Below are positions 329 through 15,105 of a DNA stretch of 17,601 nt, one piece after another. The notes below the pieces were generated by a model that was not told where the DNA came from, did not search any database, and saw nothing but the letters and a program-made list of their open reading frames with translations. This DNA is from a virus. Lineage: Duplodnaviria; Heunggongvirae; Uroviricota; Caudoviricetes. The stretch lies in the IMG/VR virus record IMGVR_UViG_2695420739_000021; one strand, written 5' to 3'. Made by a program: the position numbers and the translations under genes. How positions within the stretch are numbered: position 1 is the first letter of the stretch; every line of letters starts with the position of its first letter.

Positions 329-342
329 GGGATTTTTGGTCC

Positions 343-375
343 ACGAGAGTAGTTTAATTGAGTATGTAACTACAT
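343..375. other. Candidate att core region (attL side), with inverted repeat GTAGTT / AACTAC
   Basis: Identity between the two unit starts begins at 342/9051. Inverted repeat 349-354 / 368-373 resembles core-type integrase half-sites. Exact crossover cannot be fixed without attB. Confidence 0.3.
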
Positions 376-410
376 GATTTTAAATAGTATGCTTGATTCA
401 ACTTTTAAAC

Positions 411-434
411 CGTATAACTAAACGTATAACTAAA
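411..434. repeat. Tandem 12-bp direct repeats CGTATAACTAAA x2 (putative integrase arm-type sites, P' arm)
   Basis: Perfect tandem copies at 411-422 and 423-434; same motif occurs four times upstream of int (8858-8912). Confidence 0.45.
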
Positions 435-660
435 ATCATTTGCTGAAAAAGTGTACAATTTAAATGCGAGTTTTCCTGTGGTAAAAGCTCCAACCGTAAC
501 GATGTTCGTTATGGTTGCCTTGATGGTCTGCGTGGTCATTATGACCATTCAGGATTTGAAGGGTGACGCTTCCGACTTCCTCAAATTGAGGTTTCCGAAA
601 ATATCAGCGGGTTAGCGATTAATCTGACCATTAATTAAACTGCGAAAATTTCGTAATTAT

Positions 661-686
661 CCCGATATGGGGATCACCATATCGGG
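661..686 (-). terminator. Hairpin downstream of capsid-like gene (putative operon terminator)
   Basis: Perfect 10-bp inverted repeat CCCGATATGG / CCATATCGGG with 6-nt spacer, just 3' of the gene ending at 703; followed by AU-rich rather than a clean U-tract. Confidence 0.35.
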
Positions 687-702
687 ATTGATGCCGGAAA
701 AA

Positions 703-1629
703 TCAGCTTTTCGCCAGAACGGTGACGGCCTTATCGAGTTTTTGCCATCCGCAATAGGTGATTGCCCTGAACGCTGTAGCGTCATTCTGGAAAAGGCTAA
801 CCGTCCCTGATTCGGTTTTTATTACCGCCTCATCAGTTGGGGTTATAACCGTGGCTTCAACGTTAATAATCAGCTTTTGAGCGTCTATCAGCATCATGCG
901 ATCCGCCTGTTCGCTCACAATTACCGGTATTCTCAAAAGCTCTATCTGCCAGAACTCAGCATCAGTAAGCTGTAAGGCGTTTTCTACGGGCAAGATTAGC
1001 GACGACGTGGCAAGCGTGTTACCGTTCGCTATGTGCTTTTTGAAAAGCTCTATGAAGTTTTCGGCCTCATCAGCACCATTAAGCACGCCCTCAGGGGATA
1101 CGCCCGCCACCTCCTGGTCACTGGAAAGAAATTTTTTATCTATTTCTTTCACCGATTCCGATGTGATCAAGTCTCTGATCGCTGAATTGGTACCAGGGGT
1201 GCTAAATTTGATTAGCTCGTTATTCAGCATCACAATAGCGCCAAGTTTGCACAGTTTTAGCGCACTTTCGTTTACTTCTCCCTCTTTGACAGGGATTTCT
1301 TCGGCTTCTTTAAGCCATTTACTACCCTTGCCTGATATTGACTGCAATTTTGCGCCAAACGGAAGATTCAGCGCGCTGCTGATTAGCTTGCCTGGTACAG
1401 ACTGCGAAAAAATATACTCGCCAAGCTCTCTTACTATCGGCTCTGCCACCAGCGACGGCATATTATCCGTAGTCATTCCGGCAACAATGGATTTTTCAAG
1501 AAATTTCGATACTGCCGGATCATTTTTTTTCGTCATTTCAATTGCGTCTGCATGGCTGAATTTACACGATGTAAGCACGCTGGCGGCGCGAACTGCCGAC
1601 ACGCCTTTCATGTTTTTAGAAATCATCAT
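703..1629 (-). CDS. HK97-fold major capsid protein-like (308 aa, no delta/scaffold domain)
   Basis: ATGATG start with AGGAGG about 8 nt upstream. Segment KLGAIVMLNNELIKF...EVAGVSPEGVLNGA resembles the conserved HK97-family capsid motif. Last gene of the terS operon. Assignment is from memory, not a search. Confidence 0.5.
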   Translation of the reverse strand: MMISKNMKGVSAVRAASVLTSCKFSHADAIEMTKKNDPAVSKFLEKSIVAGMTTDNMPSLVAEPIVRELGEYIFSQSVPGKLISSALNLPFGAKLQSISGKGSKWLKEAEEIPVKEGEVNESALKLCKLGAIVMLNNELIKFSTPGTNSAIRDLITSESVKEIDKKFLSSDQEVAGVSPEGVLNGADEAENFIELFKKHIANGNTLATSSLILPVENALQLTDAEFWQIELLRIPVIVSEQADRMMLIDAQKLIINVEATVITPTDEAVIKTESGTVSLFQNDATAFRAITYCGWQKLDKAVTVLAKS

Positions 1630-1777
1630 CTTCTTCCTCCTGGTAACATGGGGTTAGGGTTTCGTGAAAATATGGCATCAGAACAGCGGCAGCCTGTAAC
1701 CGTATTTCGGTTGGCTGCTGCTTGTCGTTCATGATTTCCGTGAGTACATCAATAGGGTCTGTGATGTATTCGCTCAT
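1616..1777 (-). CDS. Hypothetical small protein (53 aa) with acidic C-terminal tail
   Basis: ATG at 1777, 11 nt after terS stop; MSEYITDPIDVLTEIMNDKQQPTEIRLQAAAVLMPYFHETLTPCYQEEEDDDF; overlaps capsid start by 14 nt. Not in ORF track (under length cutoff). Confidence 0.35.
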   Translation of the reverse strand: MSEYITDPIDVLTEIMNDKQQPTEIRLQAAAVLMPYFHETLTPCYQEEEDDDF

Positions 1778-1788
1778 AGTTCGCTACC

Positions 1789-2277
1789 TCAGTGTTTTAA
1801 GCCAGTTGGTGGCTTAGGGATGGGGAACCGATTTGAGGAGACATTAGCGGCATTGAGTTTTTTAACCTCTTTTTTCCCAATGCTGCCGATCTTGCGGTGG
1901 GTGAACTGGGCCAGCTTAAACGCGGCATCTAAAGCCAGTTTTGGATCTGTGTCCATGTTGTCAATCAGTATCCTGCCCATTGCTTTGATGGGGTCGGGTA
2001 GGCCGTTATCCATCATCTCAATGGTGTTAATTGATGCCCGTTCCGGTGTAACTTTTTCGGTAACTTTCTTTGTAACTTTTTTCGGTTTTGTAACCTGAAA
2101 AGTTACATCAGAAGTTACAGCCTTAAGATACTTTTTCACCTCCGGATCATTGGATAGCTGCCAGCCTTTAACCCTTGCAGTCTTTTCGCTGTATCCCGCA
2201 TGTATCGCGGCTTCCGTTGGATTTGTGCCCTTTGATAACGCATCAGCAAACCGCTTTTTTTTGGTCGTTAATGCCAT
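1789..2277 (-). CDS. terS: Terminase small subunit (N-terminal HTH type)
   Basis: Internal ATG (MALTTKKKRFADALSKGTNPTEAAIHAGYSEKTARVKGWQL...) matches the TerS DNA-binding N-terminus. The track's longer 208-aa start is an unlikely N-terminal extension. Confidence 0.7.
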   Translation of the reverse strand: MALTTKKKRFADALSKGTNPTEAAIHAGYSEKTARVKGWQLSNDPEVKKYLKAVTSDVTFQVTKPKKVTKKVTEKVTPERASINTIEMMDNGLPDPIKAMGRILIDNMDTDPKLALDAAFKLAQFTHRKIGSIGKKEVKKLNAANVSSNRFPIPKPPTGLKH

Positions 2278-2323
2278 GCAAAAACCTCGTTTTGAGGGGG
2301 TGTAACTTTTCGTGTAACTTTTT
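2048..2323. repeat. Cluster of GTAAC(T)TTT repeats inside and just upstream of terS (candidate pac site)
   Basis: Direct copies at about 2048, 2060, 2072, 2090, 2302, 2313 and inverted AGTTAC at about 2101 and 2113. Two copies lie upstream of the terS start codon, so not purely a coding-repeat effect. Confidence 0.35.
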
Positions 2324-2404
2324 TGAAAAGCAAAATTTTCTATGAATGAGACTGGGGGCGGTGTCCAGGGCGATCGACTTTCCGGCCGGAACACTCCCCC
2401 CCTG

Positions 2405-2566
2405 TCATTGCTCACCGAGTAACGAGATCAGGCCTTCAACTTCATCACTCAGCTTGTTTATTCGTGTCTCAAGCTCTGCGATCTTTTCCATCAATGGCGC
2501 TATGGTGTCTCTTGTTTCCTCGCCAATGGCTTTAATGATGCTTGCCTCGCGTTCTGTGATAGCCAT
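2405..2566 (-). CDS. Hypothetical small coiled-coil protein (53 aa)
   Basis: ATG 3 nt after the stop of the preceding 64-aa gene; MAITEREASIIKAIGEETRDTIAPLMEKIAELETRINKLSDEVEGLISLLGEQ. Not in ORF track. Confidence 0.3.
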   Translation of the reverse strand: MAITEREASIIKAIGEETRDTIAPLMEKIAELETRINKLSDEVEGLISLLGEQ

Positions 2567-2569
2567 TGT

Positions 2570-2764
2570 TTACGCCTCACTTGTTGCAATGCCCAGGCGT
2601 TCGCGTAACAGTACGCGCGCAAGATGCCCTATTGTTGGTGTTGCCGCCCTGCCGTAGATACCTGATTCATTCATCCGGCGCACAATATCGAACTGCAACT
2701 TTTTAAGCTCGTTAAGGATTTCATGATCAATCATCACGGTAGCGCTTTGCTTTATCTCTTCCAC
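2570..2764 (-). CDS. Hypothetical small protein (64 aa), first gene of packaging operon; possible DNA-binding
   Basis: GTG start at 2764 with AGGAG 8 nt upstream; sits after an AT-rich promoter-like region and the terminator of the preceding unit. Confidence 0.4.
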   Translation of the reverse strand: MEEIKQSATVMIDHEILNELKKLQFDIVRRMNESGIYGRAATPTIGHLARVLLRERLGIATSEA

Positions 2765-2852
2765 TTTGTTTTCTCCTGATACTTATCATTGCATAACCAG
2801 TATTTTCGATAGATTATCATTAATTAACCATATTTGAAGATATATGAGATCG

Positions 2853-2876
2853 AAAAAAAGCCGGATTGCTCCGGCT
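2853..2876 (-). terminator. Intrinsic terminator after the 81-aa gene
   Basis: Minus-strand hairpin GCCGGAGCAATCCGGC followed by U7 (plus strand: A-run 2853-2859, hairpin 2860-2875). Confidence 0.6.
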
Positions 2877-2894
2877 ATGTGCTCACTTCTTCGG

Positions 2895-3140
2895 TTATTC
2901 TCCAGCGCTTTTAACGTTGATGGTTGTTACCTGTTCCGCTTCGGCAATCTCCCGTTCTGTCAGCGTGGCAAAGTTTGCCGCCGCTGTGGTCATGAATGCG
3001 CTTATCAGTTCGGGATGCTCCTTCGCGTATCCTTCCCCCGCGTGGCGGTCTATCGTTCTGATTGCCACCTTTAAGGAAAGCTCTGTCATGTCTAACGCTT
3101 TATATTTTGGCGCTGTCTTATCTCTGGTTTTTCTGTTCAT
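2895..3140 (-). CDS. Hypothetical protein (81 aa), origin-adjacent
   Basis: ATG at 3140 directly abutting the iteron array; followed by the intrinsic terminator. Confidence 0.35.
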   Translation of the reverse strand: MNRKTRDKTAPKYKALDMTELSLKVAIRTIDRHAGEGYAKEHPELISAFMTTAAANFATLTEREIAEAEQVTTINVKSAGE

Positions 3141-3345
3141 TCCCCACTACTCCCCACTTTTGCTCCCCACTTTTTGAAATTACCCACCGTCTCCCCACCT
3201 CTTTTTTTTGTGATTCTAACGTTATGTTTTTCAATATGTTTTTTACTCCCCACTTTTTTGGGTATATACAGGTGGGAAAGTGGGTAATTATGTTTCAATT
3301 TTGTTAAATTCCCCACTCCCCCCACTTTTACTCCCCACTTTTTAC
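3141..3345. repeat. Replication origin candidate: iterons (C)TCCCCACTTTT plus AT-rich segment
   Basis: At least 8 direct copies (3141, 3150, 3163, 3191, 3245, 3310, 3319, 3331), 2 inverted (GTGGGAAAGTGGGTA at 3272-3286), and AT-rich stretch 3201-3245. Directly 3' of the rep gene. Confidence 0.6.
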
Positions 3346-4675
3346 AGCGGGCGCACGTCATCACCGTCAATAACGATTACGCCATCATTTTCCAGCTTGT
3401 ACAGCCAGCGCCGGAAGTGCTTCATCTCATACCCCAGCTTTTTCATATCGTCGCGGAGAAGGGCGATAGTGCACGCCTCCCCGTGTGCTGTTCGTGTTCT
3501 GATGCACTGCCATAGCGCGGCGTGATTCTCCGTCTTGTTCCCTGCCTCCTCGATGCGCTCCAGTTCAACGGGAGGGCGCGGCTTATCCACCACCACCAGC
3601 GACGTGATTAACTCCCCGTCAGCGTCGGTAAAAAGCTCCACCACGCGTAAGTCATATGCTGCTTCTTTGAGTTCCTCCGCGTCCTTCATTTTGGTACATG
3701 AGATAACCAGCGCTTCGCTGCCTGCGTCCTCCCTGCGTATCCGGTATTCGGCGTCCAGTGATGCACGAAATGCACTGGAACCACGCGCCCCCTTTGTTTC
3801 ATCCTTGCCGGAATGGTGAACCACCAGCACCGTTGCCCCTGTGCGCCGTTTCAGTTCGTCACACCCACGGATAAACGCCCCCATATCACGGGAATCATTT
3901 TCATCATTGCCGCCAAAGCAGCGCGCCAGCGTATCCAGAATAATCATTCGAACCGGTTTACCCGTTTCCCGTTCCACCTGACGGGCAGCGATAACCATTT
4001 CACGTGCACAACCTCCCAGGCTTTTACACGACGCGGAACACCTATACCGCCTTCACCAACCACATAGAGAACCGCACCATGTGCAACCCTGCGGCCTCCC
4101 CACTGGCGACCAGTGGCAACATGGCACGCCCACGATCCGGCAAGGAATGATTTATAGGACCCGCTAGCCCCGTATATGCTGCATAGCGATACCGCCGGAA
4201 TAATCCCCTTAACCACGTAATCCAGTTGCGTGTCGTATCCGGTAGATCCAACGCTCATCGGTAGCGTGGTTTTTCGCTGGTGGTTTTTTTCTTCCGCCGG
4301 CTCTTTCCCGCGCACCCGTTCCAGGTATTCGCGCCAGTTCTCCCGCATATGGCTGTGCATCCCTTCGGGGTAATAATTCGCATCAGTTACACCCGCCGCC
4401 GCCAGCTTGTGCGCAATGGCATTAATATTTGATGGCCTGATGTGGCCTGCCTTGTACAGCCGGACACAATAGCGCCCCTCGTCGATGATTCTCAGGTCTG
4501 CCAGTTCATCCAGTTGATCATCAGCCAGCACAACGGGAGGCACATTATCGCCAGCCAGTCGCCCGTCCTGTTCCTGCCACTGTTTCGCATGTGCCCAGGC
4601 ATCACTACCCGCAAAAATAATGACTTCGGTCATCTTGTCGTAAGGCTGTTTTTTTAAGTTCGGTGCGCTTTTCAT
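3342..4675 (-). pseudogene. Disrupted replication protein (AAA_25/RepA-like), split by 67-bp deletion
   Basis: Copy 2 has one 466-aa ORF; copy 1 is split into 3944..4675 (N-terminal, Walker A GASGSYKSF, frameshifted tail) and 3342..3998 (C-terminal, Walker B MIILD). Deletion at about 3999-4001. Confidence 0.7.
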
Positions 4676-4971
4676 TTCTTGCCCCTGAATCCGTTAATCA
4701 TGGTTTTCAGCTTCTGGATGTTTGCCCGTGCCCTGGCGTTGCTGGTGGGCACGTTATGCGGCGCGGTCTGTACCAGAGAAAAATCACGCCGGAACTGATA
4801 AACAGGCATCACGCAATCATATTCGTAACCTTCACGGCGGTAAGTTACGCACCGTCCCGCCACGCCCTTAATCATTACCGTGCCGCCGTACTGGTCGCGG
4901 TAAATATCACCGCGCGTAAATTTAGGGTGAGTGTTGCCACTGGCAGTTAAGCCAGAATATTTAAGTTTCAT
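4672..4971 (-). CDS. Hypothetical protein (99 aa), translationally coupled to rep
   Basis: ATG at 4971 with GGAG upstream; stop overlaps rep start (ATGA). Confidence 0.4.
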   Translation of the reverse strand: MKLKYSGLTASGNTHPKFTRGDIYRDQYGGTVMIKGVAGRCVTYRREGYEYDCVMPVYQFRRDFSLVQTAPHNVPTSNARARANIQKLKTMINGFRGKK

Positions 4972-4976
4972 TATTT

Positions 4977-5210
4977 TTATTCTCCGGTGTGCTGTTCGTT
5001 ATATCTGTCGTGCAATGTCTCTATTTCCTGCAACTCATTTATTACAGGCTCAAGAAGCGTTATTAATGCCGTGACAATTCTTGATTTTTGTTTGTCGCGT
5101 TCATTGTCGCCAAGTGTTTCAAGCCATATGCGCAATATTTCGTACATACCTTCAGCGTAAGCAAGGGCACTAAATGCGCGGTCTATTGTTTCGTGGTAAA
5201 TATCACGCAT
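4977..5210 (-). CDS. Small acidic helical protein (77 aa)
   Basis: ATG at 5210; net negative charge; overlaps stop of the upstream gene (TAATATG). Confidence 0.4.
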   Translation of the reverse strand: MRDIYHETIDRAFSALAYAEGMYEILRIWLETLGDNERDKQKSRIVTALITLLEPVINELQEIETLHDRYNEQHTGE

Positions 5211-5211
5211 A

Positions 5212-5433
5212 TTAATCCCCGTCCGTTGTTTTTCTTAAAACAGCTTCTGTCACGAAATCAGCATAGTTAGCGGCAATATCAAGAATATTTAGCCCTGTAT
5301 CTCTGTGCTCATCAGTGCAAAGAAAGAAAAAAGCCACCCGCATAATTTCAGATATTGACGAAAGCGCATCAGCCGCATCATCAGGAACGCCGGAAAATTC
5401 TTGTTTCAGGGAATTAAAACGATCATCACGCAT
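5212..5433 (-). CDS. Small acidic protein (73 aa), paralog of the next gene (PDDAADAL motif)
   Basis: Start MRDDRF with a G8 run as ribosome-binding site; overlaps the upstream gene (ATGCGTGA). Confidence 0.4.
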   Translation of the reverse strand: MRDDRFNSLKQEFSGVPDDAADALSSISEIMRVAFFFLCTDEHRDTGLNILDIAANYADFVTEAVLRKTTDGD

Positions 5434-5647
5434 AACCCCCCCCATTTTCACAATCAGCAACAAGAATATTTTTAGCGTCATTCAGCGACCGCGTTGCGAT
5501 GTATCGGATACATTCCAGGGCGAACTGTGTCCGGTCTTTCTGTTCTTCTCCCTGCGCAAGCTCTGCAGTGCATTCAATATCGATAAGCGCGTGCATCAGC
5601 GTAGTGAGCGCGTCGGCTGCTGCGTCCGGTGTGGTTTTATTGCACAT
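5426..5647 (-). CDS. Small acidic protein (73 aa), paralog (TPDAAADAL motif)
   Basis: Start MCNKTT with AGGAGG 7 nt upstream; overlaps the Icd-like stop. Confidence 0.4.
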   Translation of the reverse strand: MCNKTTPDAAADALTTLMHALIDIECTAELAQGEEQKDRTQFALECIRYIATRSLNDAKNILVADCENGGGYA

Positions 5648-6197
5648 GGCACACCTCCTGACGAATACGGGCGGCGAATACAGCAACACAACCGGACGGG
5701 CAACGGCTACGCGCTTCGCGTTCCGTCCAGGCGGTTACGTGGATGATTTGATGTTCTGACGCGCCAAAGATGATAAAGCGCCAGAGAAAGGCGGTTTGAG
5801 AATGTACAAGGGTAGGGATAGTAGCCATGTTGGCAGCCTCCTCAGTGTGGTTAAGATAACCGCCACCGGAAACGCCAATTTCGCTGGTGGCGGACTGTAC
5901 AGGGTTGGCGTAACCGGACACTGAAGAAACCGGCGCGGATTGCTCCGCCCCCGTACAGCCCACCATTGATAAGGTGTGACTATGCGGCACAAAAAAACAC
6001 GCGGGGCGCGTGTTATGCGCTTCAGTTTTGCCCAGGACGCCAATCCCGGCACCCGTTTTATGAGGTGCGCGGGAATCATAGCTATTTTCGACACTGGCGA
6101 TCAACTGGTTTTTTTCTCCGATATTCAGGGCCAGAAAACGCCACACAAAGGCCGTTTGTGTGTGTACAAGGTGTGGTATATGATTTACGGCAACCAT
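5637..6197 (-). CDS. Icd-like (Ash-family) protein, tandem two-domain reading frame; internal start at 5828 gives a 63-aa Icd-like product
   Basis: Two paralogous segments share HLVH(T/S)QTAF(V/L)WRF; distal one ends ...TEREARSR...VFAARIRQEV, like P4-type Icd-like proteins. No stop between them. GAGGAGG precedes the internal ATG at 5828; GGAG precedes ATG at 6197. Confidence 0.45.
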   Translation of the reverse strand: MVAVNHIPHLVHTQTAFVWRFLALNIGEKNQLIASVENSYDSRAPHKTGAGIGVLGKTEAHNTRPACFFVPHSHTLSMVGCTGAEQSAPVSSVSGYANPVQSATSEIGVSGGGYLNHTEEAANMATIPTLVHSQTAFLWRFIIFGASEHQIIHVTAWTEREARSRCPSGCVAVFAARIRQEVCHVQ

Positions 6198-6285
6198 AAC
6201 GGCTCCTAGTTTACGTTGTTGGTTAGACGCCCCGTATGTGTTCCCAGCACTGCGGGGCGTTGATTTTTGTGTAATGGCAAGTACA

Positions 6286-6329
6286 ATGGTAATTACCATG
6301 TAGGTATAGTAATGAAGGGTAATTACCAT
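6286..6329. promoter_or_regulatory. Paired palindromic operators in divergent promoter region
   Basis: Perfect 14-bp palindrome ATGGTAATTACCAT (6286-6299) and 12-bp GGTAATTACCAT (6318-6329), centres 30 bp apart; second overlaps the RHH start codon. Possible TATAGT -10 at 6305-6310. Confidence 0.5.
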
Positions 6330-6501
6330 GTCAACACCATTAGAAAAACGTTCGCCTCCATACCAAATGCGATTACCGGAAGACTTCAGAGCGCAGCTAG
6401 AAGAAGCAGCTAAGGCCGATGGCGACACATCTTTAGCCACTTGGATTAAACGCGTTCTCCGCAAAGAATTACAGCAACGCGGCATAGAACCCAAAGGATA
6501 A
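6328..6501 (+). CDS. Ribbon-helix-helix (Arc/CopG-like) DNA-binding protein, 57 aa; putative element repressor
   Basis: MSTPLEKRSPPYQMRLPEDFRAQLEEAAKADGDTSLATWIKRVLRKELQQRGIEPKG fits the Arc-type RHH pattern. Divergent from the Icd/rep operon. Not in ORF track. Confidence 0.5.
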   Translation: MSTPLEKRSPPYQMRLPEDFRAQLEEAAKADGDTSLATWIKRVLRKELQQRGIEPKG

Positions 6502-6543
6502 AAACTATCAGCGCCGTGGTGTGAGGTATTACGGCGCATTGCT

Positions 6544-6732
6544 ATGCAGGACAACACAATGACCGATAAAGAATTGACCAAAACATTATCACCGGCACGG
6601 AAAAGACGGCGCAGAAAGATAGAGCATGAATCAGAAAGATTCGCGCCATGTGCTTTTGCCCTTGAGCAATTCCTTAAAGAGTACAGGGAAAAGCGCTCAT
6701 TGCAGGTATGGCAACGAACTGAACCAGACTGA
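6544..6732 (+). CDS. Hypothetical basic small protein (62 aa)
   Basis: ORF between RHH gene and the plus-strand terminator; weak ribosome-binding site; arginine-rich stretch KRRRRK. Confidence 0.25.
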   Translation: MQDNTMTDKELTKTLSPARKRRRRKIEHESERFAPCAFALEQFLKEYREKRSLQVWQRTEPD

Positions 6733-6827
6733 TTGCATTGCCCACCAGCCTGATAGCGGCTATCATCCCCGTGCTTATGTTTGGGATCACATACACATAA
6801 GGCGCAGCGGGTTAATTGTTCAGAAAG

Positions 6828-6854
6828 GCGGCTCCATATCGGGGCCGCTTTTTT
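6828..6854 (+). terminator. Intrinsic terminator at convergence of RHH unit and alpA
   Basis: Stem GCGGCTCC / GGGGCCGC (one G-U pair), 5-nt loop, then T6. Confidence 0.55.
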
Positions 6855-6880
6855 CGTGTTTGTCATATCTGTGATACCCG

Positions 6881-7087
6881 TTAAGCAGCCGTTCCGCGTG
6901 CTTCCTCTTCGCGTTCTTTCTGCCAGGACAACACATCATCCTCATACCATCCGCGACGGCGTAAACCAACGCGAAAACCCTGCGGAAATTCTCCGGCGTT
7001 GATCATGCTTTGCAGCGTGCTGTCTGCCTTGATGTGGATAATTTTTTTTACTTCCTGGCGAAAGATAATTTTTCTGATTGCTTCCAT
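6881..7087 (-). CDS. alpA: AlpA-family regulator / excisionase-like protein (68 aa)
   Basis: ...STLQSMINAGEFPQGFRVGLRRRGWYEDDVLSWQ matches the AlpA-family HTH pattern. Confidence 0.75.
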   Translation of the reverse strand: MEAIRKIIFRQEVKKIIHIKADSTLQSMINAGEFPQGFRVGLRRRGWYEDDVLSWQKEREEEARGTAA

Positions 7088-7103
7088 CGTGATTTACCTT
7101 GTG

Positions 7104-7191
7104 AATCCGGTGTATTCCGGTGACAAATACGGTAAATCATCGGATATGGGTAAAAACAGTTCCCACCGTTTTTAAACGGTATACACCGTTT
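7104..7191. promoter_or_regulatory. alpA upstream control region: TCCGGTG repeats and ACCGTTT/AAACGGT inverted repeats
   Basis: ATCCGGTG (7104-7111) and TTCCGGTGA (7114-7122) spaced 10 bp; inverted repeats at 7165-7180 and 7174-7191. The TCCGGTG motif recurs next to the att core. Confidence 0.35.
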
Positions 7192-7220
7192 TTTATATTG
7201 ATGATTTGAAATGGAATTAT

Positions 7221-7243
7221 AAAAAAAGCGGCATTTCTGCCGC
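7221..7243 (-). terminator. Intrinsic terminator of the int / 83-aa unit
   Basis: Minus-strand hairpin GCGGCAGAAATGCCGC followed by U7. Confidence 0.6.
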
Positions 7244-7254
7244 TTCCAGGATTG

Positions 7255-7506
7255 TTACCGCCATTTTTTGGGCCTGCCTCCGATCTTCATAGATGCCGGA
7301 CGTACGACCTTATCAATACTTACCGCCAGATTTCTGGAAGCGCCACGGGATACCAGAAAATCTACTACCTGTTTTTTTGATGGGGCCGTCGTTCTGTCCT
7401 CCGGATCGTAGGTTGACCAAAATTCATGCTGAACCATCAGGGCCAGTTGCAGCCCGTCGCAATTGCATCTGATATTTTTTTGCATCTTAACGGTTTCATG
7501 TTTCAC
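7255..7506 (-). CDS. Hypothetical int-linked small protein (83 aa)
   Basis: ORF downstream of int on the same strand, before the terminator; GTG start at 7506 (alternative ATG at M8); TATAAT motif about 28 nt upstream. Confidence 0.4.
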   Translation of the reverse strand: MKHETVKMQKNIRCNCDGLQLALMVQHEFWSTYDPEDRTTAPSKKQVVDFLVSRGASRNLAVSIDKVVRPASMKIGGRPKKWR

Positions 7507-7583
7507 GGCCTTGTCGTTAAATTTGATGCAATTATACGACGGTTTTACATGGTTTTCGTAGTTTTTACTGGTTTTCTGTACAG

Positions 7584-8825
7584 CTACACGGCTCGGATAC
7601 CCCTTTTACCACTGGCGAGGGTTACGCCCGTCGCCGCAGCCTCGACAAATTCGCCCCACCAGCGCATCAGCACGATGCGTTTTTCTATGTAGTTGCTCCG
7701 GTTGTATGCCCGTCTAACTTCGTTGGTGTCGACGTGGGCAAGTGCCGCCTCTATTACGTCCGGCTCGAATCCTTCCTCGTTCGCTGCTGTGCTGAATATG
7801 GCGCGTAATCCATGAGACACCAGCACGCCAGCGAATCCCATACGCCGCAATGCTGCGTTAGCTGTCTGGCTGTTCATCGGCTGCTGTGGGTCTTTCAGAC
7901 TTGGGAAAACGTAATTGCGGTGGTGGCTGATTGGTTTCATGGCCTCCAGCACCGCCATAGCCTGACCGGAAAGCGGGATAACGTGATCCCTGCGCATCTT
8001 CATGCGTCCGGCAGGTATCGTCCATTGCTTCGCGTCCAGGTTGATTTCATCCCACCGCGTTGATGACGCTTCGGCGGGACGGGTTACGGTCAGTAACTGC
8101 CATTCAATCAGTAATCTGGTCTGCCGTTCTGTTGCCGATACTGATAAAGCCTGCATAAGCTCGGGCAGCTGTTCGGGGCGGATTGTTGGCATATGTTTTT
8201 TTACAGGTGAGGGAAACGCCTTACGCACATTCATAGCCGGATTGGCATCAATCAGCCCACTGTTGGCGGCGTAATCCATTACCTCATTAACGCGCTGTAA
8301 AACCCGCTTGAGTGTTTCCAGGTTGCCGCGCTCCTTGATGGGGGTAAGCACTTCAACGAACCTTCGGGCGGTGAGGGTATCTATTGGCGTGTTGCCGATG
8401 AACGGGAATACATATTTATCCAGCGAACGCCAGATGTCTTTAATCGTGTTGGGGGCCAGATTCTGGCTGATTTTCACCTGGTACCATGCCGCCGCCACAT
8501 TTTCGAACGTGTTCCCTTGTCTTCGGGCCTCTGTCTCTCTTTTTTGCCTCTCGTGGTCCTGCGGGTCAGTTCCGGCACTGATTAACGTCCTGTACTCGCT
8601 ACGGCGTTTTCTGGCATCAGCCAGGGAAACATCTTCAAGCGATCCAAAACTCAGCAATATTCTTTTTTTGTCCGATGGTCGGTAGTAGGAAAATCTCCAG
8701 AGTTTTGATCCAGACGGTTTGACCAGGAGAAAAAGCCCTCCGCCGTCCTGCAGGGTGTACTCCTTTTGCGCTGGTCTGGCTGCTTTGATCTGCACTGTGG
8801 TTAATGGGTGTGTTTTTCTCGCCAT
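7584..8825 (-). CDS. int: Tyrosine integrase, P4-type (413 aa)
   Basis: N-terminus MARKTHPLTTVQIKAARPAQKEYTLQDGGGLFLLVKPSGSKLWRFSYY is typical of P4-like integrases; ATG at 8825 preferred over the upstream GTG. Confidence 0.85.
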   Translation of the reverse strand: MARKTHPLTTVQIKAARPAQKEYTLQDGGGLFLLVKPSGSKLWRFSYYRPSDKKRILLSFGSLEDVSLADARKRRSEYRTLISAGTDPQDHERQKRETEARRQGNTFENVAAAWYQVKISQNLAPNTIKDIWRSLDKYVFPFIGNTPIDTLTARRFVEVLTPIKERGNLETLKRVLQRVNEVMDYAANSGLIDANPAMNVRKAFPSPVKKHMPTIRPEQLPELMQALSVSATERQTRLLIEWQLLTVTRPAEASSTRWDEINLDAKQWTIPAGRMKMRRDHVIPLSGQAMAVLEAMKPISHHRNYVFPSLKDPQQPMNSQTANAALRRMGFAGVLVSHGLRAIFSTAANEEGFEPDVIEAALAHVDTNEVRRAYNRSNYIEKRIVLMRWWGEFVEAAATGVTLASGKRGIRAV

Positions 8826-8857
8826 ATGTCTATGATTCCACACGAAAAAACAGGGTT

Positions 8858-8912
8858 TTAGTTATACGGCTTTAGTTATACGCCAGCCCGTATAACTAAA
8901 CGTATAACTAAA
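8858..8912. repeat. Four copies of CGTATAACTAAA (two inverted, two direct): putative arm-type sites, P arm
   Basis: TTTAGTTATACG at about 8858 and 8871; CGTATAACTAAA at about 8890 and 8901. Same motif as 411-434. Confidence 0.45.
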
Positions 8913-8923
8913 AAATCCGGCTG

Positions 8924-9037
8924 ATAGCTTATAAATCCGGTGATGTTCGGTGACTAAAAAACATAAAAAAACCCGCCAATCAAGTGATTAGCGGGTTATC
9001 CCTGTCTTATCCGGTGCTTTCCGGTGATATCCGGTGG
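8924..9037. repeat. TCCGGTG direct repeats, three phased at 10 bp, next to att core (candidate directionality-factor sites)
   Basis: Copies at about 8924 (variant), 8935, 8946 (variant), 9009, 9019, 9029; the last three are exactly 10 bp apart. Confidence 0.4.
8962..8997 (-). terminator. Intrinsic terminator between the copy-2 capsid operon and int
   Basis: Minus-strand stem AACCCGC / GCGGGTT with 14-nt loop followed by U7. Confidence 0.5.
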
Positions 9038-9119
9038 GCGATTTGGTCGGCACGAGAGTAGTTTAATTGAGTATGTAACTACATGATTTTAAATAGTATG
9101 CTTGATTCAACTTTTAAAC

Positions 9120-9143
9120 CGTATAACTAAACGTATAACTAAA
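9120..9143. repeat. Tandem CGTATAACTAAA x2 (P' arm of junction attP)
   Basis: Copy-2 equivalent of 411-434; with 8858-9037 and the core near 9051 this forms a full attP-like site. Confidence 0.45.
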
Positions 9144-9411
9144 ATCATTTGCTGAAAAAGTGTACAATTTAAATGCGAGTTTTCCTGTGGTAAAAGCTCC
9201 AACCGTAACGATGTTCGTTATGGTTGCCTTGATGGTCTGCGTGGTCATTATGACCATTCAGGATTTGAAGGGTGACGCTTCCGACTTCCTCAAATTGAGG
9301 TTTCCGAAAATATCAGCGGGTTAGCGATTAATCTGACCATTAATTAAACTGCGAAAATTTCGTAATTATCCCGATATGGGGATCACCATATCGGGATTGA
9401 TGCCGGAAAAA

Positions 9412-10338
9412 TCAGCTTTTCGCCAGAACGGTGACGGCCTTATCGAGTTTTTGCCATCCGCAATAGGTGATTGCCCTGAACGCTGTAGCGTCATTCTGGA
9501 AAAGGCTAACCGTCCCTGATTCGGTTTTTATTACCGCCTCATCAGTTGGGGTTATAACCGTGGCTTCAACGTTAATAATCAGCTTTTGAGCGTCTATCAG
9601 CATCATGCGATCCGCCTGTTCGCTCACAATTACCGGTATTCTCAAAAGCTCTATCTGCCAGAACTCAGCATCAGTAAGCTGTAAGGCGTTTTCTACGGGC
9701 AAGATTAGCGACGACGTGGCAAGCGTGTTACCGTTCGCTATGTGCTTTTTGAAAAGCTCTATGAAGTTTTCGGCCTCATCAGCACCATTAAGCACGCCCT
9801 CAGGGGATACGCCCGCCACCTCCTGGTCACTGGAAAGAAATTTTTTATCTATTTCTTTCACCGATTCCGATGTGATCAAGTCTCTGATCGCTGAATTGGT
9901 ACCAGGGGTGCTAAATTTGATTAGCTCGTTATTCAGCATCACAATAGCGCCAAGTTTGCACAGTTTTAGCGCACTTTCGTTTACTTCTCCCTCTTTGACA
10001 GGGATTTCTTCGGCTTCTTTAAGCCATTTACTACCCTTGCCTGATATTGACTGCAATTTTGCGCCAAACGGAAGATTCAGCGCGCTGCTGATTAGCTTGC
10101 CTGGTACAGACTGCGAAAAAATATACTCGCCAAGCTCTCTTACTATCGGCTCTGCCACCAGCGACGGCATATTATCCGTAGTCATTCCGGCAACAATGGA
10201 TTTTTCAAGAAATTTCGATACTGCCGGATCATTTTTTTTCGTCATTTCAATTGCGTCTGCATGGCTGAATTTACACGATGTAAGCACGCTGGCGGCGCGA
10301 ACTGCCGACACGCCTTTCATGTTTTTAGAAATCATCAT
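9412..10338 (-). CDS. HK97-fold major capsid protein-like (copy 2)
   Basis: Identical translation to 703..1629. Confidence 0.5.
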   Translation of the reverse strand: MMISKNMKGVSAVRAASVLTSCKFSHADAIEMTKKNDPAVSKFLEKSIVAGMTTDNMPSLVAEPIVRELGEYIFSQSVPGKLISSALNLPFGAKLQSISGKGSKWLKEAEEIPVKEGEVNESALKLCKLGAIVMLNNELIKFSTPGTNSAIRDLITSESVKEIDKKFLSSDQEVAGVSPEGVLNGADEAENFIELFKKHIANGNTLATSSLILPVENALQLTDAEFWQIELLRIPVIVSEQADRMMLIDAQKLIINVEATVITPTDEAVIKTESGTVSLFQNDATAFRAITYCGWQKLDKAVTVLAKS

Positions 10339-10486
10339 CTTCTTCCTCCTGGTAACATGGGGTTAGGGTTTCGTGAAAATATGGCATCAGAACAGCGGCA
10401 GCCTGTAACCGTATTTCGGTTGGCTGCTGCTTGTCGTTCATGATTTCCGTGAGTACATCAATAGGGTCTGTGATGTATTCGCTCAT
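10325..10486 (-). CDS. Hypothetical small protein with acidic tail (copy 2)
   Basis: Copy of 1616..1777 at +8709. Confidence 0.35.
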   Translation of the reverse strand: MSEYITDPIDVLTEIMNDKQQPTEIRLQAAAVLMPYFHETLTPCYQEEEDDDF

Positions 10487-10497
10487 AGTTCGCTACC

Positions 10498-10986
10498 TCA
10501 GTGTTTTAAGCCAGTTGGTGGCTTAGGGATGGGGAACCGATTTGAGGAGACATTAGCGGCATTGAGTTTTTTAACCTCTTTTTTCCCAATGCTGCCGATC
10601 TTGCGGTGGGTGAACTGGGCCAGCTTAAACGCGGCATCTAAAGCCAGTTTTGGATCTGTGTCCATGTTGTCAATCAGTATCCTGCCCATTGCTTTGATGG
10701 GGTCGGGTAGGCCGTTATCCATCATCTCAATGGTGTTAATTGATGCCCGTTCCGGTGTAACTTTTTCGGTAACTTTCTTTGTAACTTTTTTCGGTTTTGT
10801 AACCTGAAAAGTTACATCAGAAGTTACAGCCTTAAGATACTTTTTCACCTCCGGATCATTGGATAGCTGCCAGCCTTTAACCCTTGCAGTCTTTTCGCTG
10901 TATCCCGCATGTATCGCGGCTTCCGTTGGATTTGTGCCCTTTGATAACGCATCAGCAAACCGCTTTTTTTTGGTCGTTAATGCCAT
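10498..10986 (-). CDS. terS: Terminase small subunit (copy 2)
   Basis: Identical to 1789..2277; ATG confirmed at 10984-10986 (plus-strand CAT). Confidence 0.7.
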   Translation of the reverse strand: MALTTKKKRFADALSKGTNPTEAAIHAGYSEKTARVKGWQLSNDPEVKKYLKAVTSDVTFQVTKPKKVTKKVTEKVTPERASINTIEMMDNGLPDPIKAMGRILIDNMDTDPKLALDAAFKLAQFTHRKIGSIGKKEVKKLNAANVSSNRFPIPKPPTGLKH

Positions 10987-11113
10987 GCAAAAACCTCGTT
11001 TTGAGGGGGTGTAACTTTTCGTGTAACTTTTTTGAAAAGCAAAATTTTCTATGAATGAGACTGGGGGCGGTGTCCAGGGCGATCGACTTTCCGGCCGGAA
11101 CACTCCCCCCCTG

Positions 11114-11275
11114 TCATTGCTCACCGAGTAACGAGATCAGGCCTTCAACTTCATCACTCAGCTTGTTTATTCGTGTCTCAAGCTCTGCGATCTTTTCCAT
11201 CAATGGCGCTATGGTGTCTCTTGTTTCCTCGCCAATGGCTTTAATGATGCTTGCCTCGCGTTCTGTGATAGCCAT
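11114..11275 (-). CDS. Hypothetical coiled-coil protein, 53 aa (copy 2)
   Basis: Copy of 2405..2566. Confidence 0.3.
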   Translation of the reverse strand: MAITEREASIIKAIGEETRDTIAPLMEKIAELETRINKLSDEVEGLISLLGEQ

Positions 11276-11278
11276 TGT

Positions 11279-11473
11279 TTACGCCTCACTTGTTGCAATG
11301 CCCAGGCGTTCGCGTAACAGTACGCGCGCAAGATGCCCTATTGTTGGTGTTGCCGCCCTGCCGTAGATACCTGATTCATTCATCCGGCGCACAATATCGA
11401 ACTGCAACTTTTTAAGCTCGTTAAGGATTTCATGATCAATCATCACGGTAGCGCTTTGCTTTATCTCTTCCAC
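11279..11473 (-). CDS. Hypothetical small protein, 64 aa (copy 2)
   Basis: Identical translation to 2570..2764. Confidence 0.4.
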   Translation of the reverse strand: MEEIKQSATVMIDHEILNELKKLQFDIVRRMNESGIYGRAATPTIGHLARVLLRERLGIATSEA

Positions 11474-11603
11474 TTTGTTTTCTCCTGATACTTATCATTG
11501 CATAACCAGTATTTTCGATAGATTATCATTAATTAACCATATTTGAAGATATATGAGATCGAAAAAAAGCCGGATTGCTCCGGCTATGTGCTCACTTCTT
11601 CGG

Positions 11604-11849
11604 TTATTCTCCAGCGCTTTTAACGTTGATGGTTGTTACCTGTTCCGCTTCGGCAATCTCCCGTTCTGTCAGCGTGGCAAAGTTTGCCGCCGCTGTGGTC
11701 ATGAATGCGCTTATCAGTTCGGGATGCTCCTTCGCGTATCCTTCCCCCGCGTGGCGGTCTATCGTTCTGATTGCCACCTTTAAGGAAAGCTCTGTCATGT
11801 CTAACGCTTTATATTTTGGCGCTGTCTTATCTCTGGTTTTTCTGTTCAT
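11604..11849 (-). CDS. Hypothetical origin-adjacent protein, 81 aa (copy 2)
   Basis: Identical translation to 2895..3140. Confidence 0.35.
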   Translation of the reverse strand: MNRKTRDKTAPKYKALDMTELSLKVAIRTIDRHAGEGYAKEHPELISAFMTTAAANFATLTEREIAEAEQVTTINVKSAGE

Positions 11850-12054
11850 TCCCCACTACTCCCCACTTTTGCTCCCCACTTTTTGAAATTACCCACCGTC
11901 TCCCCACCTCTTTTTTTTGTGATTCTAACGTTATGTTTTTCAATATGTTTTTTACTCCCCACTTTTTTGGGTATATACAGGTGGGAAAGTGGGTAATTAT
12001 GTTTCAATTTTGTTAAATTCCCCACTCCCCCCACTTTTACTCCCCACTTTTTAC
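11850..12054. repeat. Replication origin iterons (copy 2)
   Basis: Same TCCCCACTTTT iteron array as 3141..3345. Confidence 0.6.
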
Positions 12055-13451
12055 AGCGGGCGCACGTCATCACCGTCAATAACGATTACGCCATCATTTT
12101 CCAGCTTGTACAGCCAGCGCCGGAAGTGCTTCATCTCATACCCCAGCTTTTTCATATCGTCGCGGAGAAGGGCGATAGTGCACGCCTCCCCGTGTGCTGT
12201 TCGTGTTCTGATGCACTGCCATAGCGCGGCGTGATTCTCCGTCTTGTTCCCTGCCTCCTCGATGCGCTCCAGTTCAACGGGAGGGCGCGGCTTATCCACC
12301 ACCACCAGCGACGTGATTAACTCCCCGTCAGCGTCGGTAAAAAGCTCCACCACGCGTAAGTCATATGCTGCTTCTTTGAGTTCCTCCGCGTCCTTCATTT
12401 TGGTACATGAGATAACCAGCGCTTCGCTGCCTGCGTCCTCCCTGCGTATCCGGTATTCGGCGTCCAGTGATGCACGAAATGCACTGGAACCACGCGCCCC
12501 CTTTGTTTCATCCTTGCCGGAATGGTGAACCACCAGCACCGTTGCCCCTGTGCGCCGTTTCAGTTCGTCACACCCACGGATAAACGCCCCCATATCACGG
12601 GAATCATTTTCATCATTGCCGCCAAAGCAGCGCGCCAGCGTATCCAGAATAATCATTCGAACCGGTTTACCCGTTTCCCGTTCCACCTGACGGGCAGCGA
12701 TAACCATTTCCTCAACATCAAGCGGGGCAGCCGGAAAGATGGGACGGTTTACCAGATACAGATTTTTCACCTGCTCACCGTGCACAACCTCCCAGGCTTT
12801 TACACGACGCGGAACGCCGATACCGCCTTCACCAACCACATAGAGAACAGCGCCATGCGCCACCCTGCGGCCTCCCCACTGGCGGCCCGTGGAAACGTGA
12901 CACGCCCACGAACCCGCAAGGAACGATTTATATGAACCGCTCGCCCCGTATATGCTGCACAGCGATACCGCCGGAATAATCCCCTTAACCACGTAATCAA
13001 GTTGTGTGTCGTATCCGGCAGATCCCACGCTCATTGGTAGCGTGGTTTTTCGCTGGTGGTGTTTTTCTTCCCCTGGCTTTTTCCCCCGCTCCCGTTCCAG
13101 ATATTCGCGCCAGTTCTCCCGCTTCTGGCTGTGCATCCCTTCGGGGTAATAATTCGCATCAGTTACACCCGCCGCCGCCAGCTTGTGCGCAATGGCATTA
13201 ATATTTGATGGCCTGATGTGGCCTGCCTTGTACAGCCGGACACAATAGCGCCCCTCGTCGATGATTCTCAGGTCTGCCAGTTCATCCAGTTGATCATCAG
13301 CCAGCACAACGGGAGGCACATTATCGCCAGCCAGTCGCCCGTCCTGTTCCTGCCACTGTTTCGCATGTGCCCAGGCATCACTACCCGCAAAAATAATGAC
13401 TTCGGTCATCTTGTCGTAAGGCTGTTTTTTTAAGTTCGGTGCGCTTTTCAT
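12051..13451 (-). CDS. Replication protein, AAA_25/RepA-DnaB-like ATPase with C-terminal winged-helix region (466 aa, intact)
   Basis: Single ORF with Walker A (GASGSYKSF), Walker B (VRMIILDTLARCFGG), VLVVHHSGKDETKGARGSSA motif and basic C-terminal region; ATG at 13451; origin immediately 3'. Confidence 0.75.
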   Translation of the reverse strand: MKSAPNLKKQPYDKMTEVIIFAGSDAWAHAKQWQEQDGRLAGDNVPPVVLADDQLDELADLRIIDEGRYCVRLYKAGHIRPSNINAIAHKLAAAGVTDANYYPEGMHSQKRENWREYLERERGKKPGEEKHHQRKTTLPMSVGSAGYDTQLDYVVKGIIPAVSLCSIYGASGSYKSFLAGSWACHVSTGRQWGGRRVAHGAVLYVVGEGGIGVPRRVKAWEVVHGEQVKNLYLVNRPIFPAAPLDVEEMVIAARQVERETGKPVRMIILDTLARCFGGNDENDSRDMGAFIRGCDELKRRTGATVLVVHHSGKDETKGARGSSAFRASLDAEYRIRREDAGSEALVISCTKMKDAEELKEAAYDLRVVELFTDADGELITSLVVVDKPRPPVELERIEEAGNKTENHAALWQCIRTRTAHGEACTIALLRDDMKKLGYEMKHFRRWLYKLENDGVIVIDGDDVRPL

Positions 13452-13747
13452 TTCTTGCCCCTGAATCCGTTAAACATGGTTTTCAGCTTCTGGATGTTTG
13501 CCCGTGCCCTGGCGTTGCTGGTGGGCACGTTATGCGGCGCGGTCTGTACCAGAGAAAAATCACGCCGGAACTGATAAACAGGCATCACGCAATCATATTC
13601 GTAACCTTCACGGCGGTAAGTTACGCACCGTCCCGCCACGCCCTTAATCATTACCGTGCCGCCGTACTGGTCGCGGTAAATATCACCGCGCGTAAATTTA
13701 GGGTGAGTGTTGCCACTGGCAGTTAAGCCAGAATATTTAAGTTTCAT
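13448..13747 (-). CDS. Hypothetical protein, 99 aa, coupled to rep (copy 2)
   Basis: Copy of 4672..4971 with one substitution (I to F). Confidence 0.4.
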   Translation of the reverse strand: MKLKYSGLTASGNTHPKFTRGDIYRDQYGGTVMIKGVAGRCVTYRREGYEYDCVMPVYQFRRDFSLVQTAPHNVPTSNARARANIQKLKTMFNGFRGKK

Positions 13748-13752
13748 TATTT

Positions 13753-13986
13753 TTATTCTCCGGTGTGCTGTTCGTTATATCTGTCGTGCAATGTCTCTAT
13801 TTCCTGCAACTCATTTATTACAGGCTCAAGAAGCGTTATTAATGCCGTGACAATTCTTGATTTTTGTTTGTCGCGTTCATTGTCGCCAAGTGTTTCAAGC
13901 CATATGCGCAATATTTCGTACATACCTTCAGCGTAAGCAAGGGCACTAAATGCGCGGTCTATTGTTTCGTGGTAAATATCACGCAT
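13753..13986 (-). CDS. Small acidic helical protein, 77 aa (copy 2)
   Basis: Identical translation to 4977..5210. Confidence 0.4.
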   Translation of the reverse strand: MRDIYHETIDRAFSALAYAEGMYEILRIWLETLGDNERDKQKSRIVTALITLLEPVINELQEIETLHDRYNEQHTGE

Positions 13987-13987
13987 A

Positions 13988-14973: not shown

Positions 14974-15061
14974 AACGGCTCCTAGTTTACGTTGTTGGTT
15001 AGACGCCCCGTATGTGTTCCCAGCACTGCGGGGCGTTGATTTTTGTGTAATGGCAAGTACA

Positions 15062-15105
15062 ATGGTAATTACCATGTAGGTATAGTAATGAAGGGTAATT
15101 ACCAT
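15062..15105. promoter_or_regulatory. Paired palindromic operators (copy 2)
   Basis: Copy of 6286..6329. Confidence 0.5.

Follow-up and report, generated by a model that had tools for sequence, protein, structure and literature searches.

Phage lambda starts packaging at a cohesive-end site (cos) whose cut leaves a 12-nt 5' overhang. No HNH protein takes part, the small terminase subunit (TerS) gpNu1 belongs to a winged-helix family and the R sites all lie upstream of Nu1. The pac site of SPP1 consists of site clusters upstream of and inside terS, a few hundred bp apart, and headful packaging follows from an imprecise cut at pacC. HK97 TerS has no helix-turn-helix (HTH) domain and reads a single 15-bp A-tract site, located at +15 to +29, through its channel (PMC11331095). 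The present work concerns a terS gene and the short repeats in and before it, on a 17,601-nt stretch of DNA (IMG/VR record IMGVR_UViG_2695420739_000021; the whole stretch is called the window here) that corresponds to Escherichia coli chromosome with two tandem copies of an island of about 8.7 kb. As judged from its genes, the island is a putative phage satellite resembling the phage-inducible chromosomal islands (PICIs).

Four packaging strategies of satellites are named in the preprint on capsid-forming PICIs (cf-PICIs): a copied helper cos, an own TerS acting on a pac site, the Rpp protein, and the full cf-PICI machinery (bioRxiv 10.1101/2022.09.08.507074). The Gram-negative PICI EcCICFT073 keeps a lambda-like cosN and has its own cosB that is read through Rpp, a small adaptor heterodimerising with lambda-type TerS (PMC6739421). 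A satellite TerS paired with an HNH-type cos is absent from the strategies found in the literature searched, the list in the cf-PICI preprint included. We propose that the region 2047-2402 on the minus strand of the window probably is a satellite packaging site of just this kind, that is an HK97/HNH-type cos with cosB-like TerS recognition sites that are partly overprinted on terS (rough probability 0.65).

The repeat array and the adjacent cos-like block

The terS gene occupies 1789-2277 on the minus strand and encodes 162 amino acids, as read from the open reading frame (ORF) and its translation; the Shine-Dalgarno sequence GAGG, read from the sequence, is located at 2285-2288 (-). The GTAACTTTT repeats read AAAAGTTACAC on the terS coding strand, and all eight copies that the 8.7-kb island contains lie within 271 bp. 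Six AAGTTACA-type sites form a distal cluster at 2047-2119 (-) in the codons for linker residues 54-77 of TerS. Four of them are direct (GTTAC on the coding strand; GTAAC cores on the plus strand starting at 2048, 2060, 2072 and 2090) and two are inverted (GTTAC cores on the plus strand starting at 2102 and 2114); along the coding strand the two inverted copies come first and the four direct ones follow. The proximal pair, AAAAAAGTTACACG and AAAAGTTACACC, resides in the untranslated leader at 2301-2323 (-), with cores at 2302 and 2314 that are 12 bp apart and lie at -41 and -29 from the ATG. A preliminary description of this DNA had counted eight copies in the coding region, which holds six cores, but its two leader copies and the cluster as such are borne out. 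Its statement that the coding copies encode Val-Thr-type peptide repeats is likewise correct, as all six are in frame and give the peptide AVTSDVTFQVTKPKKVTKKVTEKVT (residues 54-77).

The exact 8-mer GTAACTTT is matched 12 times in the window, six times per island copy, while 0.46 matches are expected from shuffled sequences and none of 200 shuffles reached 12; the better consensus core AAGTTACA also has 12 matches, against 0.51 expected. All repeat matches are confined to 2047-2321 and the equivalent part of the second copy (10757-11030). Even the 5-mer GTAAC/GTTAC, which occurs 25 times in copy 1, has eight of these occurrences in 2048-2318, compared with about 0.55 predicted from the background rate. 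In the second copy, terS, both repeat clusters and the adjoining cos-like block are found at 10498-11111 (-), with an offset of +8709 and without mismatches in the module. Rfam yielded no match in or near the repeats, and our literature searches found no paper that describes them.

Directly upstream of the leader repeats lies a block (2324-2402, minus strand) that shares about 80% identity with the stretch between the HNH and terS genes in E. coli prophages. It comprises a G-run (2396-2402), a spacer, GGACAC (2361-2366), a putative 10-nt 3' cohesive end CGCCCCCAGT (2351-2360, minus strand, assigned by homology), the sequence CTCATTC and an A/T tract GAAAATTTTG (2331-2340, minus strand; +11 to +20 from the inferred cut), at the place of which relatives have AGAAAAAAT. 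The order is G-run, about 35 nt, GGACACCGCCCCCAGT|CTCA. In an alignment with the mapped ends of phages Lys8385Vzw and fEg-Aba01, GGACACCGCCCCCAGT|CTCATTC coincides with these ends, and G-run and A-tract are in register. Lys8385Vzw is a Shiga toxin (Stx) 1 phage with Stx1-type TerS. PhageTerm classed its virion DNA as cos-packaged, the 3' cohesive ends being CGCCCCCCCT (PMC7946995), and the GenBank record of the phage begins at the base right after CGCCCCCCCT. The Acinetobacter phage fEg-Aba01, the TerS of which is 31% identical to that of the island, has a 10-nt 3' end CGCCCCCCAT, determined by PhageTerm and a heat/anneal restriction gel (PMC7354433) and annotated in its record. Furthermore, the island TerS is 47% identical to TerS of the long-tailed Stx1a, Stx2c and PPompW phages, which carry HNH-terS-terL and a protease-capsid fusion. 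Eleven loci anchored at the cut share a common layout consisting of G-run, about 35 nt, GGACACCGCCCCCnnT | CTCAyKC, A-tract and first repeat.

By this homology the cut would fall between 2351 and 2350. The leader region carries a homologue of mapped 10-nt 3' ends, and the packaging system is therefore probably cos-type and HNH-associated rather than pac-type. Since the cos block stands beside the leader copies, the repeats occupy the position of a cosB, on the packaging-start side of the cut. The sites of the window are situated at +33, +45, +233, +245, +257, +275, +287 and +299 from the inferred cut, and the expected cleavage point, outside terS, precedes the first repeat by about 33 nt.

Pac sites inside terS are known from P22, SPP1 and P1-type systems, and the preliminary description had proposed a pac site of this sort, in the headful sense, for the island. 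TerS would then bind the repeats and the large terminase subunit (TerL) would cut imprecisely nearby. The presence of repeats within and before terS and a DNA-binding domain like that of the pac phage SF6 agree with such a site. We nevertheless consider it very unlikely, because an HK97-type cos architecture is found directly upstream of the leader copies and two relatives with homologous TerS possess defined, mapped cohesive ends. In addition, every related phage found carries HNH-terS-terL, the hallmark of HK97-type cos packaging, and an element of 8.7 kb with a conserved cut motif suits packaging of unit-length or multimeric DNA from cos.

Every lineage examined, HK97 and the Acinetobacter phage included, has 6-10 consecutive G residues some 50 nt left of the cut (window 2396-2402 on the minus strand and loci L002, L006, L008, L010, L012, L094, L098-L100 and HK97 L015); the spacer sequence is not conserved. 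Besides the cut region, cos sites of this type may thus have the G-run as a second conserved feature, with a possible role in termination or for HNH/TerL.

Selection on the repeats and their variation among lineages

All eight sites are present again in island copy 2 (+8709) and stay conserved in homologues with 55-65% protein identity. Codon usage was compared in five such lineages, i.e. the window island and the terS loci of an E. coli island with its own HNH gene, a Hafnia prophage, a Salmonella element and a further contig. All 21 linker Val-Thr dipeptides of these lineages are encoded as GTAAC-T or GTTAC-A/C. The rare codon ACA specifies Thr in 11 of the 13 direct copies. Seven of the eight inverted copies have a T in front of them, even though the amino acid encoded there differs between copies (A, D, S, G, L, R, S), and the AAGTTACA core is thus preserved on whichever strand it occupies. 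Outside the linker, none of 27 conserved four- or six-fold degenerate columns has the same codon in all five lineages; inside the repeats three of five such columns do, and the other two are identical in four of the five lineages (Fisher p about 0.002 for repeats versus the rest of the gene). Each lineage also has at least one non-coding leader copy with the same flanks (GAAAAAGTTACAC). Selection on the repeats acts on DNA and not on the peptide.

A basic (K)VT(K/E)K linker repeat maintained purely at the protein level, with leader copies arising by chance, would account for the conservation of the peptide repeat among homologues. It is extremely unlikely in view of codons that are frozen in the repeats alone, of non-coding copies that have identical flanks and a fixed position in every lineage, of a Proteus DNA motif that yields unrelated peptides, and of a chance expectation of about 0.5 per window for the 8-mer.

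A TerS profile search provided further lineages, the linkers of which contain other dipeptide repeats. Five more prophages were included, each of which carries HNH-terS-terL together with a portal gene and a protease-capsid fusion. In the island clade the DNA motif GTTACA goes along with a Lys-Val-Thr linker. Morganella, Dryocola and two further prophages have GTTAAC/T and Lys-Val-Asn, and Acinetobacter has AAGTTAAA (GTTAAA) and Lys-Val-Lys. In the Proteus prophage the motif ATGTTAACA is used in another reading frame and gives Met-Leu-Thr. Stx-type phages contain five copies of GTTAAC in a 229-nt leader, no coding copies and an unrelated linker, which is deleted in the natural variant P0042; the five leader copies of the Stx phage fall within 120 bp and represent five of the 13 GTTAAC in its 49.6-kb genome. 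Across all lineages with coding copies the leader motif equals the linker-codon motif, and both change together. The proposal of the preliminary description that the repeat is selected at the DNA level is therefore confirmed by codons fixed within the repeats, by leader copies with identical flanks and by the joint change of leader and linker motifs. Its test, a comparison with otherwise conserved homologues, gave repeats that are either kept or replaced by a variant motif in leader and coding copies jointly.

The number of linker repeats varies by 12-bp units. The E. coli variants P0004 and P0003 lose exactly four or eight residues, and two near-identical prophages (P0051 versus P0059, loci L097 versus L096) have TerS proteins of 163 and 199 amino acids. 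This difference is an expansion of KVN (GTTAAC/T) from four to ten motif copies in the coding sequence. It can be envisaged that only the leader copies function and that the coding copies are by-products, e.g. of 12-bp slippage from a chance copy, which are tolerated in a disordered linker. Stx-type phages, whose five sites are confined to the leader, fit this explanation, as do the 12-bp steps in copy number and the disorder of the linker. We regard it as unlikely. Slippage leaves unexplained why core and flanks are kept at synonymous positions of a kind that is saturated elsewhere in the gene, and why conserved inverted copies have T before GTAAC. Moreover, the linker copies follow the leader motif in each clade, even in another reading frame.

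The first site is located at +33 to +36 from the inferred cut in all 12 TerS lineages. This constancy bears on a role of the repeats as operator sites of the packaging operon, either for autoregulation by TerS or for a late activator of the helper. In the window the leader pair stands 25-46 nt upstream of the ATG, beside the Shine-Dalgarno sequence, and a similar pair in locus L006 holds its distance to the ATG despite a leader that is 150 nt longer. On the other hand, it is the distance of the first site to the cos cut, not to the ATG, that is held in the long-leader loci L002 and L006, a promoter scan of 1600-3000 gave no sigma-70-like promoter, and sites 160-230 nt inside the coding sequence are not expected of an operator. 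An operator instead of a packaging site is hence quite unlikely, yet an operator role could be compatible with packaging recognition. A terminator-like match at 2284-2301 lies on the non-coding strand, overlaps the Shine-Dalgarno region and was disregarded.

Some loci depart from the common pattern. In the Morganella prophage L098, five extra GTTAA(C/T/A) are found about 100-170 nt upstream of the cut, in the HNH 3' end and around the G-run; sites on both sides of the cut were seen in this locus and in none of the other lineages. In the E. coli loci L006 and L007 cos is preceded by an HNH gene of the element itself, and the leader, 227 nt long, contains six GTTACA and one GTTAAC, an inverted pair included. 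The leader is followed by terS and a capsid homologue without terL, and these loci look intermediate between a prophage and the minimal island. Burkholderia relatives share the conserved block to the right of the cut, but no clear repeat motif could be defined for them. A scan of species-representative genomes with a TerS alignment gave no confirmed relative, and a scan of IMG/VR yielded no clades other than those of the island and of the Stx phages and added little diversity.

The small terminase, its proposed action and the island

The terS product is a genuine small terminase, as had been assumed from the outset. It matches Pfam Terminase_2 (PF03592; E=4.8e-11, 43.9 bits versus a cutoff of 26.1) and PHROG 641 (E=6e-44). 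In the AlphaFold model an N-terminal helical domain (residues 5-56) is followed by a disordered linker (57-84) and a helical core (96-126). The N-terminal 56 residues are modelled with a predicted local distance difference test score (pLDDT) of about 80-87 and have the helix-turn-helix DNA-binding domain of small terminases of the Terminase_2 or SF6/SPP1 type. Foldseek matches this domain to 4zc3 and 2cmp with template modelling (TM) scores of 0.82-0.87; for 4zc3, the DNA-binding domain of SF6 TerS, the TM score is 0.87 at a root-mean-square deviation of 1.5 A and 30% identity. Most of the Val-Thr repeats fall in residues 57-84, where pLDDT is below 50 and the model has no secondary structure. 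Residues 96-126 form a helical hairpin in the monomer model (pLDDT 76-83), and this core is about 80% conserved with TerS of Stx phages. The disordered linker is the part of TerS most able to carry a DNA signal, and TerS, for which DNA binding is predicted, is the likely reader of the repeats.

On the favoured interpretation as an HNH-type cos with cosB-like sites, TerS of the island would be an SF6/SPP1-like protein with an N-terminal helix-turn-helix, a disordered linker and a helical oligomerisation core. Its oligomers would bind the AAAAGTTACAC repeats, both the leader pair (+33, +45) and the six sites in the linker codons (+233 to +299). By analogy with the HK97 model (PMC11331095), bound TerS would then position TerL and HNH of the helper on the adjacent conserved block, and nicking between 2351 and 2350 would leave the 10-nt 3' overhang CGCCCCCAGT, if the homology holds. 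Packaging would run through terS toward lower window coordinates up to the next cos on a concatemer of the island. The repeat motif would be the lineage-specific part, in the role of lambda cosB, while the cut region and the A-tract would be common to helper-type phages. Position, repetition and lineage specificity of the repeats fit a cosB-like element, but the TerS family differs from gpNu1. Functional use of the coding copies and TerS, rather than another protein, as the binder are what we infer from this pattern.

More tentatively, and with somewhat less than even odds, the arrangement may extend to a whole family of HNH-cos phages and their satellites in Escherichia, Hafnia, Salmonella, Morganella, Proteus, Dryocola and Acinetobacter. 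Part of the TerS recognition array would be placed in the disordered linker of terS and a satellite would gain a private packaging identity. A specificity change in the DNA site would be mirrored in the linker peptide as KVT, KVN or KVK. The private identity of the island would consist of GTTACA (versus GTTAAC of the Stx type), its own TerS and a mini-protein resembling the TerS core, used together with borrowed TerL and HNH.

Several observations weigh against the interpretation as an HNH-type cos with cosB-like sites or narrow it. The recognition helix is nearly identical in the GTTACA and GTTAAC clades, which leaves their discrimination unexplained, and HNH and TerL, either of which might conceivably be the motif reader, co-vary with TerS in the phages. 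The motif variants amount to about three or four independent clades or switches, and the covariation of leader and linker therefore rests on few evolutionary events. Stx-type phages use leader copies only; coding copies are accordingly not a general requirement of the packaging system and may be auxiliary. The distance of the distal cluster from the cut also varies by lineage (+110 to +148 versus +223 to +300). The cut position 2351/2350 is deduced from homology, and the putative overhang of the island differs from that of the Stx phage at two of ten positions. Finally, the C-terminal tail of TerS has to be considered. The tail '...P(x)LKH' is shared by the window island and Hafnia, Salmonella and Proteus elements, and '...PP(K/R)LVVNN...' by Stx-type, Morganella, Dryocola, Enterobacter and Citrobacter elements. 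Tail type does not track the DNA motif, as Proteus combines GTTAAC with the KH tail, and may mark TerL partner specificity, which bears on the choice of the helper. With LKH in the island and LVVNN in Stx phages, the actual helper may therefore be a phage other than the latter, and the motif of the island need not differ from that of its actual helper.

The TerS-core mini-protein is encoded by a 53-codon ORF between terS and the capsid homologue (1616-1777, minus strand; 10325-10486 in copy 2), and its product ends in acidic residues (EEEDDDF). The similarity of this product to TerS is limited to the oligomerisation core (PHROG 641 positions 89-126, E=8e-7); it is 36% identical over 33 residues to the core of a Yokenella TerS (P0110, E=8e-6). 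BLASTP against the island TerS or Stx TerS gave no match and hhalign against the island TerS clade was weak. ORFs of 50-53 codons follow terS in the islands L003, L011 and L012 but not in prophages. The mini-protein is a possible accessory to the packaging switch, and one may speculate that it could cap or poison TerS rings of the helper in a manner resembling Ppi or Rpp.

In the window the end of yejO (1-334) is followed by the two tandem island copies of about 8.7 kb (about 335-9043 and 9042-17601+, offset 8709). The late/packaging half (335-4001) is identical in both apart from one gap, and the half for integrase, regulation and replication has 33 mismatches. In copy 1 a deletion of about 66 bp near 4001 breaks RepA into ORFs of 218 and 243 amino acids, while RepA of copy 2 is intact (466 amino acids). 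A single copy occurs between yejO and tRNA-Pro/yejM in strain 2015C-4944 and many genomes of Shiga toxin-producing E. coli (STEC), and the island is present in about 220 of 5,426 complete E. coli genomes, mostly STEC. As the best-matching complete E. coli genomes carry one copy only, either related islands integrated here one after the other, or the tandem is a rare or assembly-dependent arrangement.

All island genes lie on the minus strand. They encode an integrase, a 68-residue HTH regulator, Icd-like and Ash proteins, a DUF4222 protein, a RepA helicase, three small ORFs, TerS (1789-2277), the 53-residue protein and a major-capsid homologue of 308 residues. Gram-negative PICIs were taken to be elements of about 8-15 kb with a terminal integrase, an AlpA-like HTH regulator, own replication, few late genes, a dedicated att site and no tail or lysis genes. 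The island agrees with this definition in size, integrase, HTH regulator, RepA, the late genes terS and capsid homologue, and insertion at tRNA-Pro, and it matches the general gene layout of Gram-negative PICIs (PMC6092414). Gene and domain annotation found neither HNH nor TerL in the island. Both must therefore be supplied by a helper, and as a cos system the island is incomplete and helper-dependent. Literature searches turned up no experimental data on the island, and neither a published PICI like it nor an Stx-phage helper was matched directly.

PICI origins are iteron arrays (PMC6092414), and with their spacing of 12 bp the repeats might be taken for replication-origin iterons of the island RepA or a primase. 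There is next to no probability for this, since PICI origins lie directly 3' of the rep gene and not in terS (PMC6092414). Moreover, a sister island is inserted elsewhere in the chromosome; its integrase differs, a primase stands in for the RepA helicase, and its late module is 97.5% identical. The occurrence of the same repeat module on a different replication background and in true prophages argues against a replication or island-regulatory role.

The capsid homologue (703-1629, minus strand; Pfam Phage_capsid) has the HK97 fold and is 23% identical (E=1e-18) to the capsid part of the protease-capsid fusion of the Stx1 phage. It is reminiscent of SaPIbov5 Ccm, which redirects capsid size; a genome of 8.7 kb would fill a helper-sized head only as a multimer. 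Another 53-codon ORF, with a coiled-coil-like sequence (2405-2566, minus strand), stops just before the G-run of the cos block. The islands L003, L010/L011 and L012 have similar small ORFs at the same place, which in prophages is taken by the HNH gene. Within an ORF with Ash domain (5637-6866, minus strand), in the Icd-like/Ash region, Rfam matches to the C4 antisense RNA (5883-5970, minus strand; 77.6 bits) and to isrK (5992-6068, minus strand; 66 bits), both above the gathering score, indicate an arrangement like P1/P7 immI in the regulatory region of a satellite.

Comparison with known packaging systems

If correct, the more tentative idea of a private packaging identity of the satellite would constitute a route of packaging redirection distinct from TerS/Ppi of the Staphylococcus aureus pathogenicity islands (SaPIs), from Rpp and from cf-PICIs. 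The proposed function as such would predict a recognition motif of 8 to 11 bp, with exact positions and a one-base specificity difference, for a large, medically relevant group of phages comprising the long-tailed Stx1a, Stx2c and related STEC prophages and relatives in other Enterobacterales and Acinetobacter; our literature searches found no description of a cosB equivalent for this group. It would also show, in a natural setting, an array of protein-binding DNA sites embedded in the coding sequence of the very protein that presumably binds them. The correction from pac to cos matters for the prediction of transduction, i.e. specific packaging of unit-length or multimeric DNA versus generalized transduction.

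As in lambda, the inferred cut site is followed on the packaging-start side by short repeats in both orientations before or at the small terminase gene, which in the island would likewise be the lineage-specific recognition element of TerS. The island differs from lambda in its overhang, which by homology is 3' and 10 nt long, and in having most repeats inside the terS coding sequence. With HK97 it shares, by homology, a 10-nt 3' end, an HNH-associated terminase (that of the helper in case of the island) and the layout of G-run, spacer of about 35 nt, C-rich cut region and A/T tract downstream of the cut. On the other hand, the island has an array of 8-mer repeats starting at +33, and HK97 TerS did not appear in sequence and fold search results with the island TerS. 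The SPP1/SF6 systems, in which G1P binds pacL, pacC and pacR, have TerS of the same fold family and repeat clusters upstream of and inside terS, but relatives of the island have defined cohesive ends.

Among satellites, EcCICFT073 is comparable in combining a shared cut region with a lineage-specific repeat motif. In contrast to the Rpp system, the TerS encoded by the island is full-length and from a different family, and the island would target cos phages of the HNH type. An Rpp protein was not identified in the island, although no query was directed at Rpp, and the TerS-core ORF is a different kind of candidate. As in pac SaPIs, an island-encoded TerS would give the island private packaging specificity, but pac SaPIs use headful packaging. 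SaPIbov5 also has a cos for an HNH-dependent helper and a capsid-protein homologue (Ccm), but it lacks terS and copies the helper cos, whereas the island appears to pair its own TerS with cos. The cf-PICIs such as EcCIEDL933 are likewise satellites of HNH-type phages with own packaging and capsid genes (bioRxiv 10.1101/2022.09.08.507074). They possess the full set of capsid, protease, portal, connectors, hnh, terS and terL, where the island has only terS, the TerS-core mini-ORF and the capsid homologue. By analogy, the logic of the element resembles that of lambda cosB or SPP1 pacL/pacR, the cut chemistry would by homology be like that of HK97, and the strategy resembles that of SaPI TerS or Rpp.

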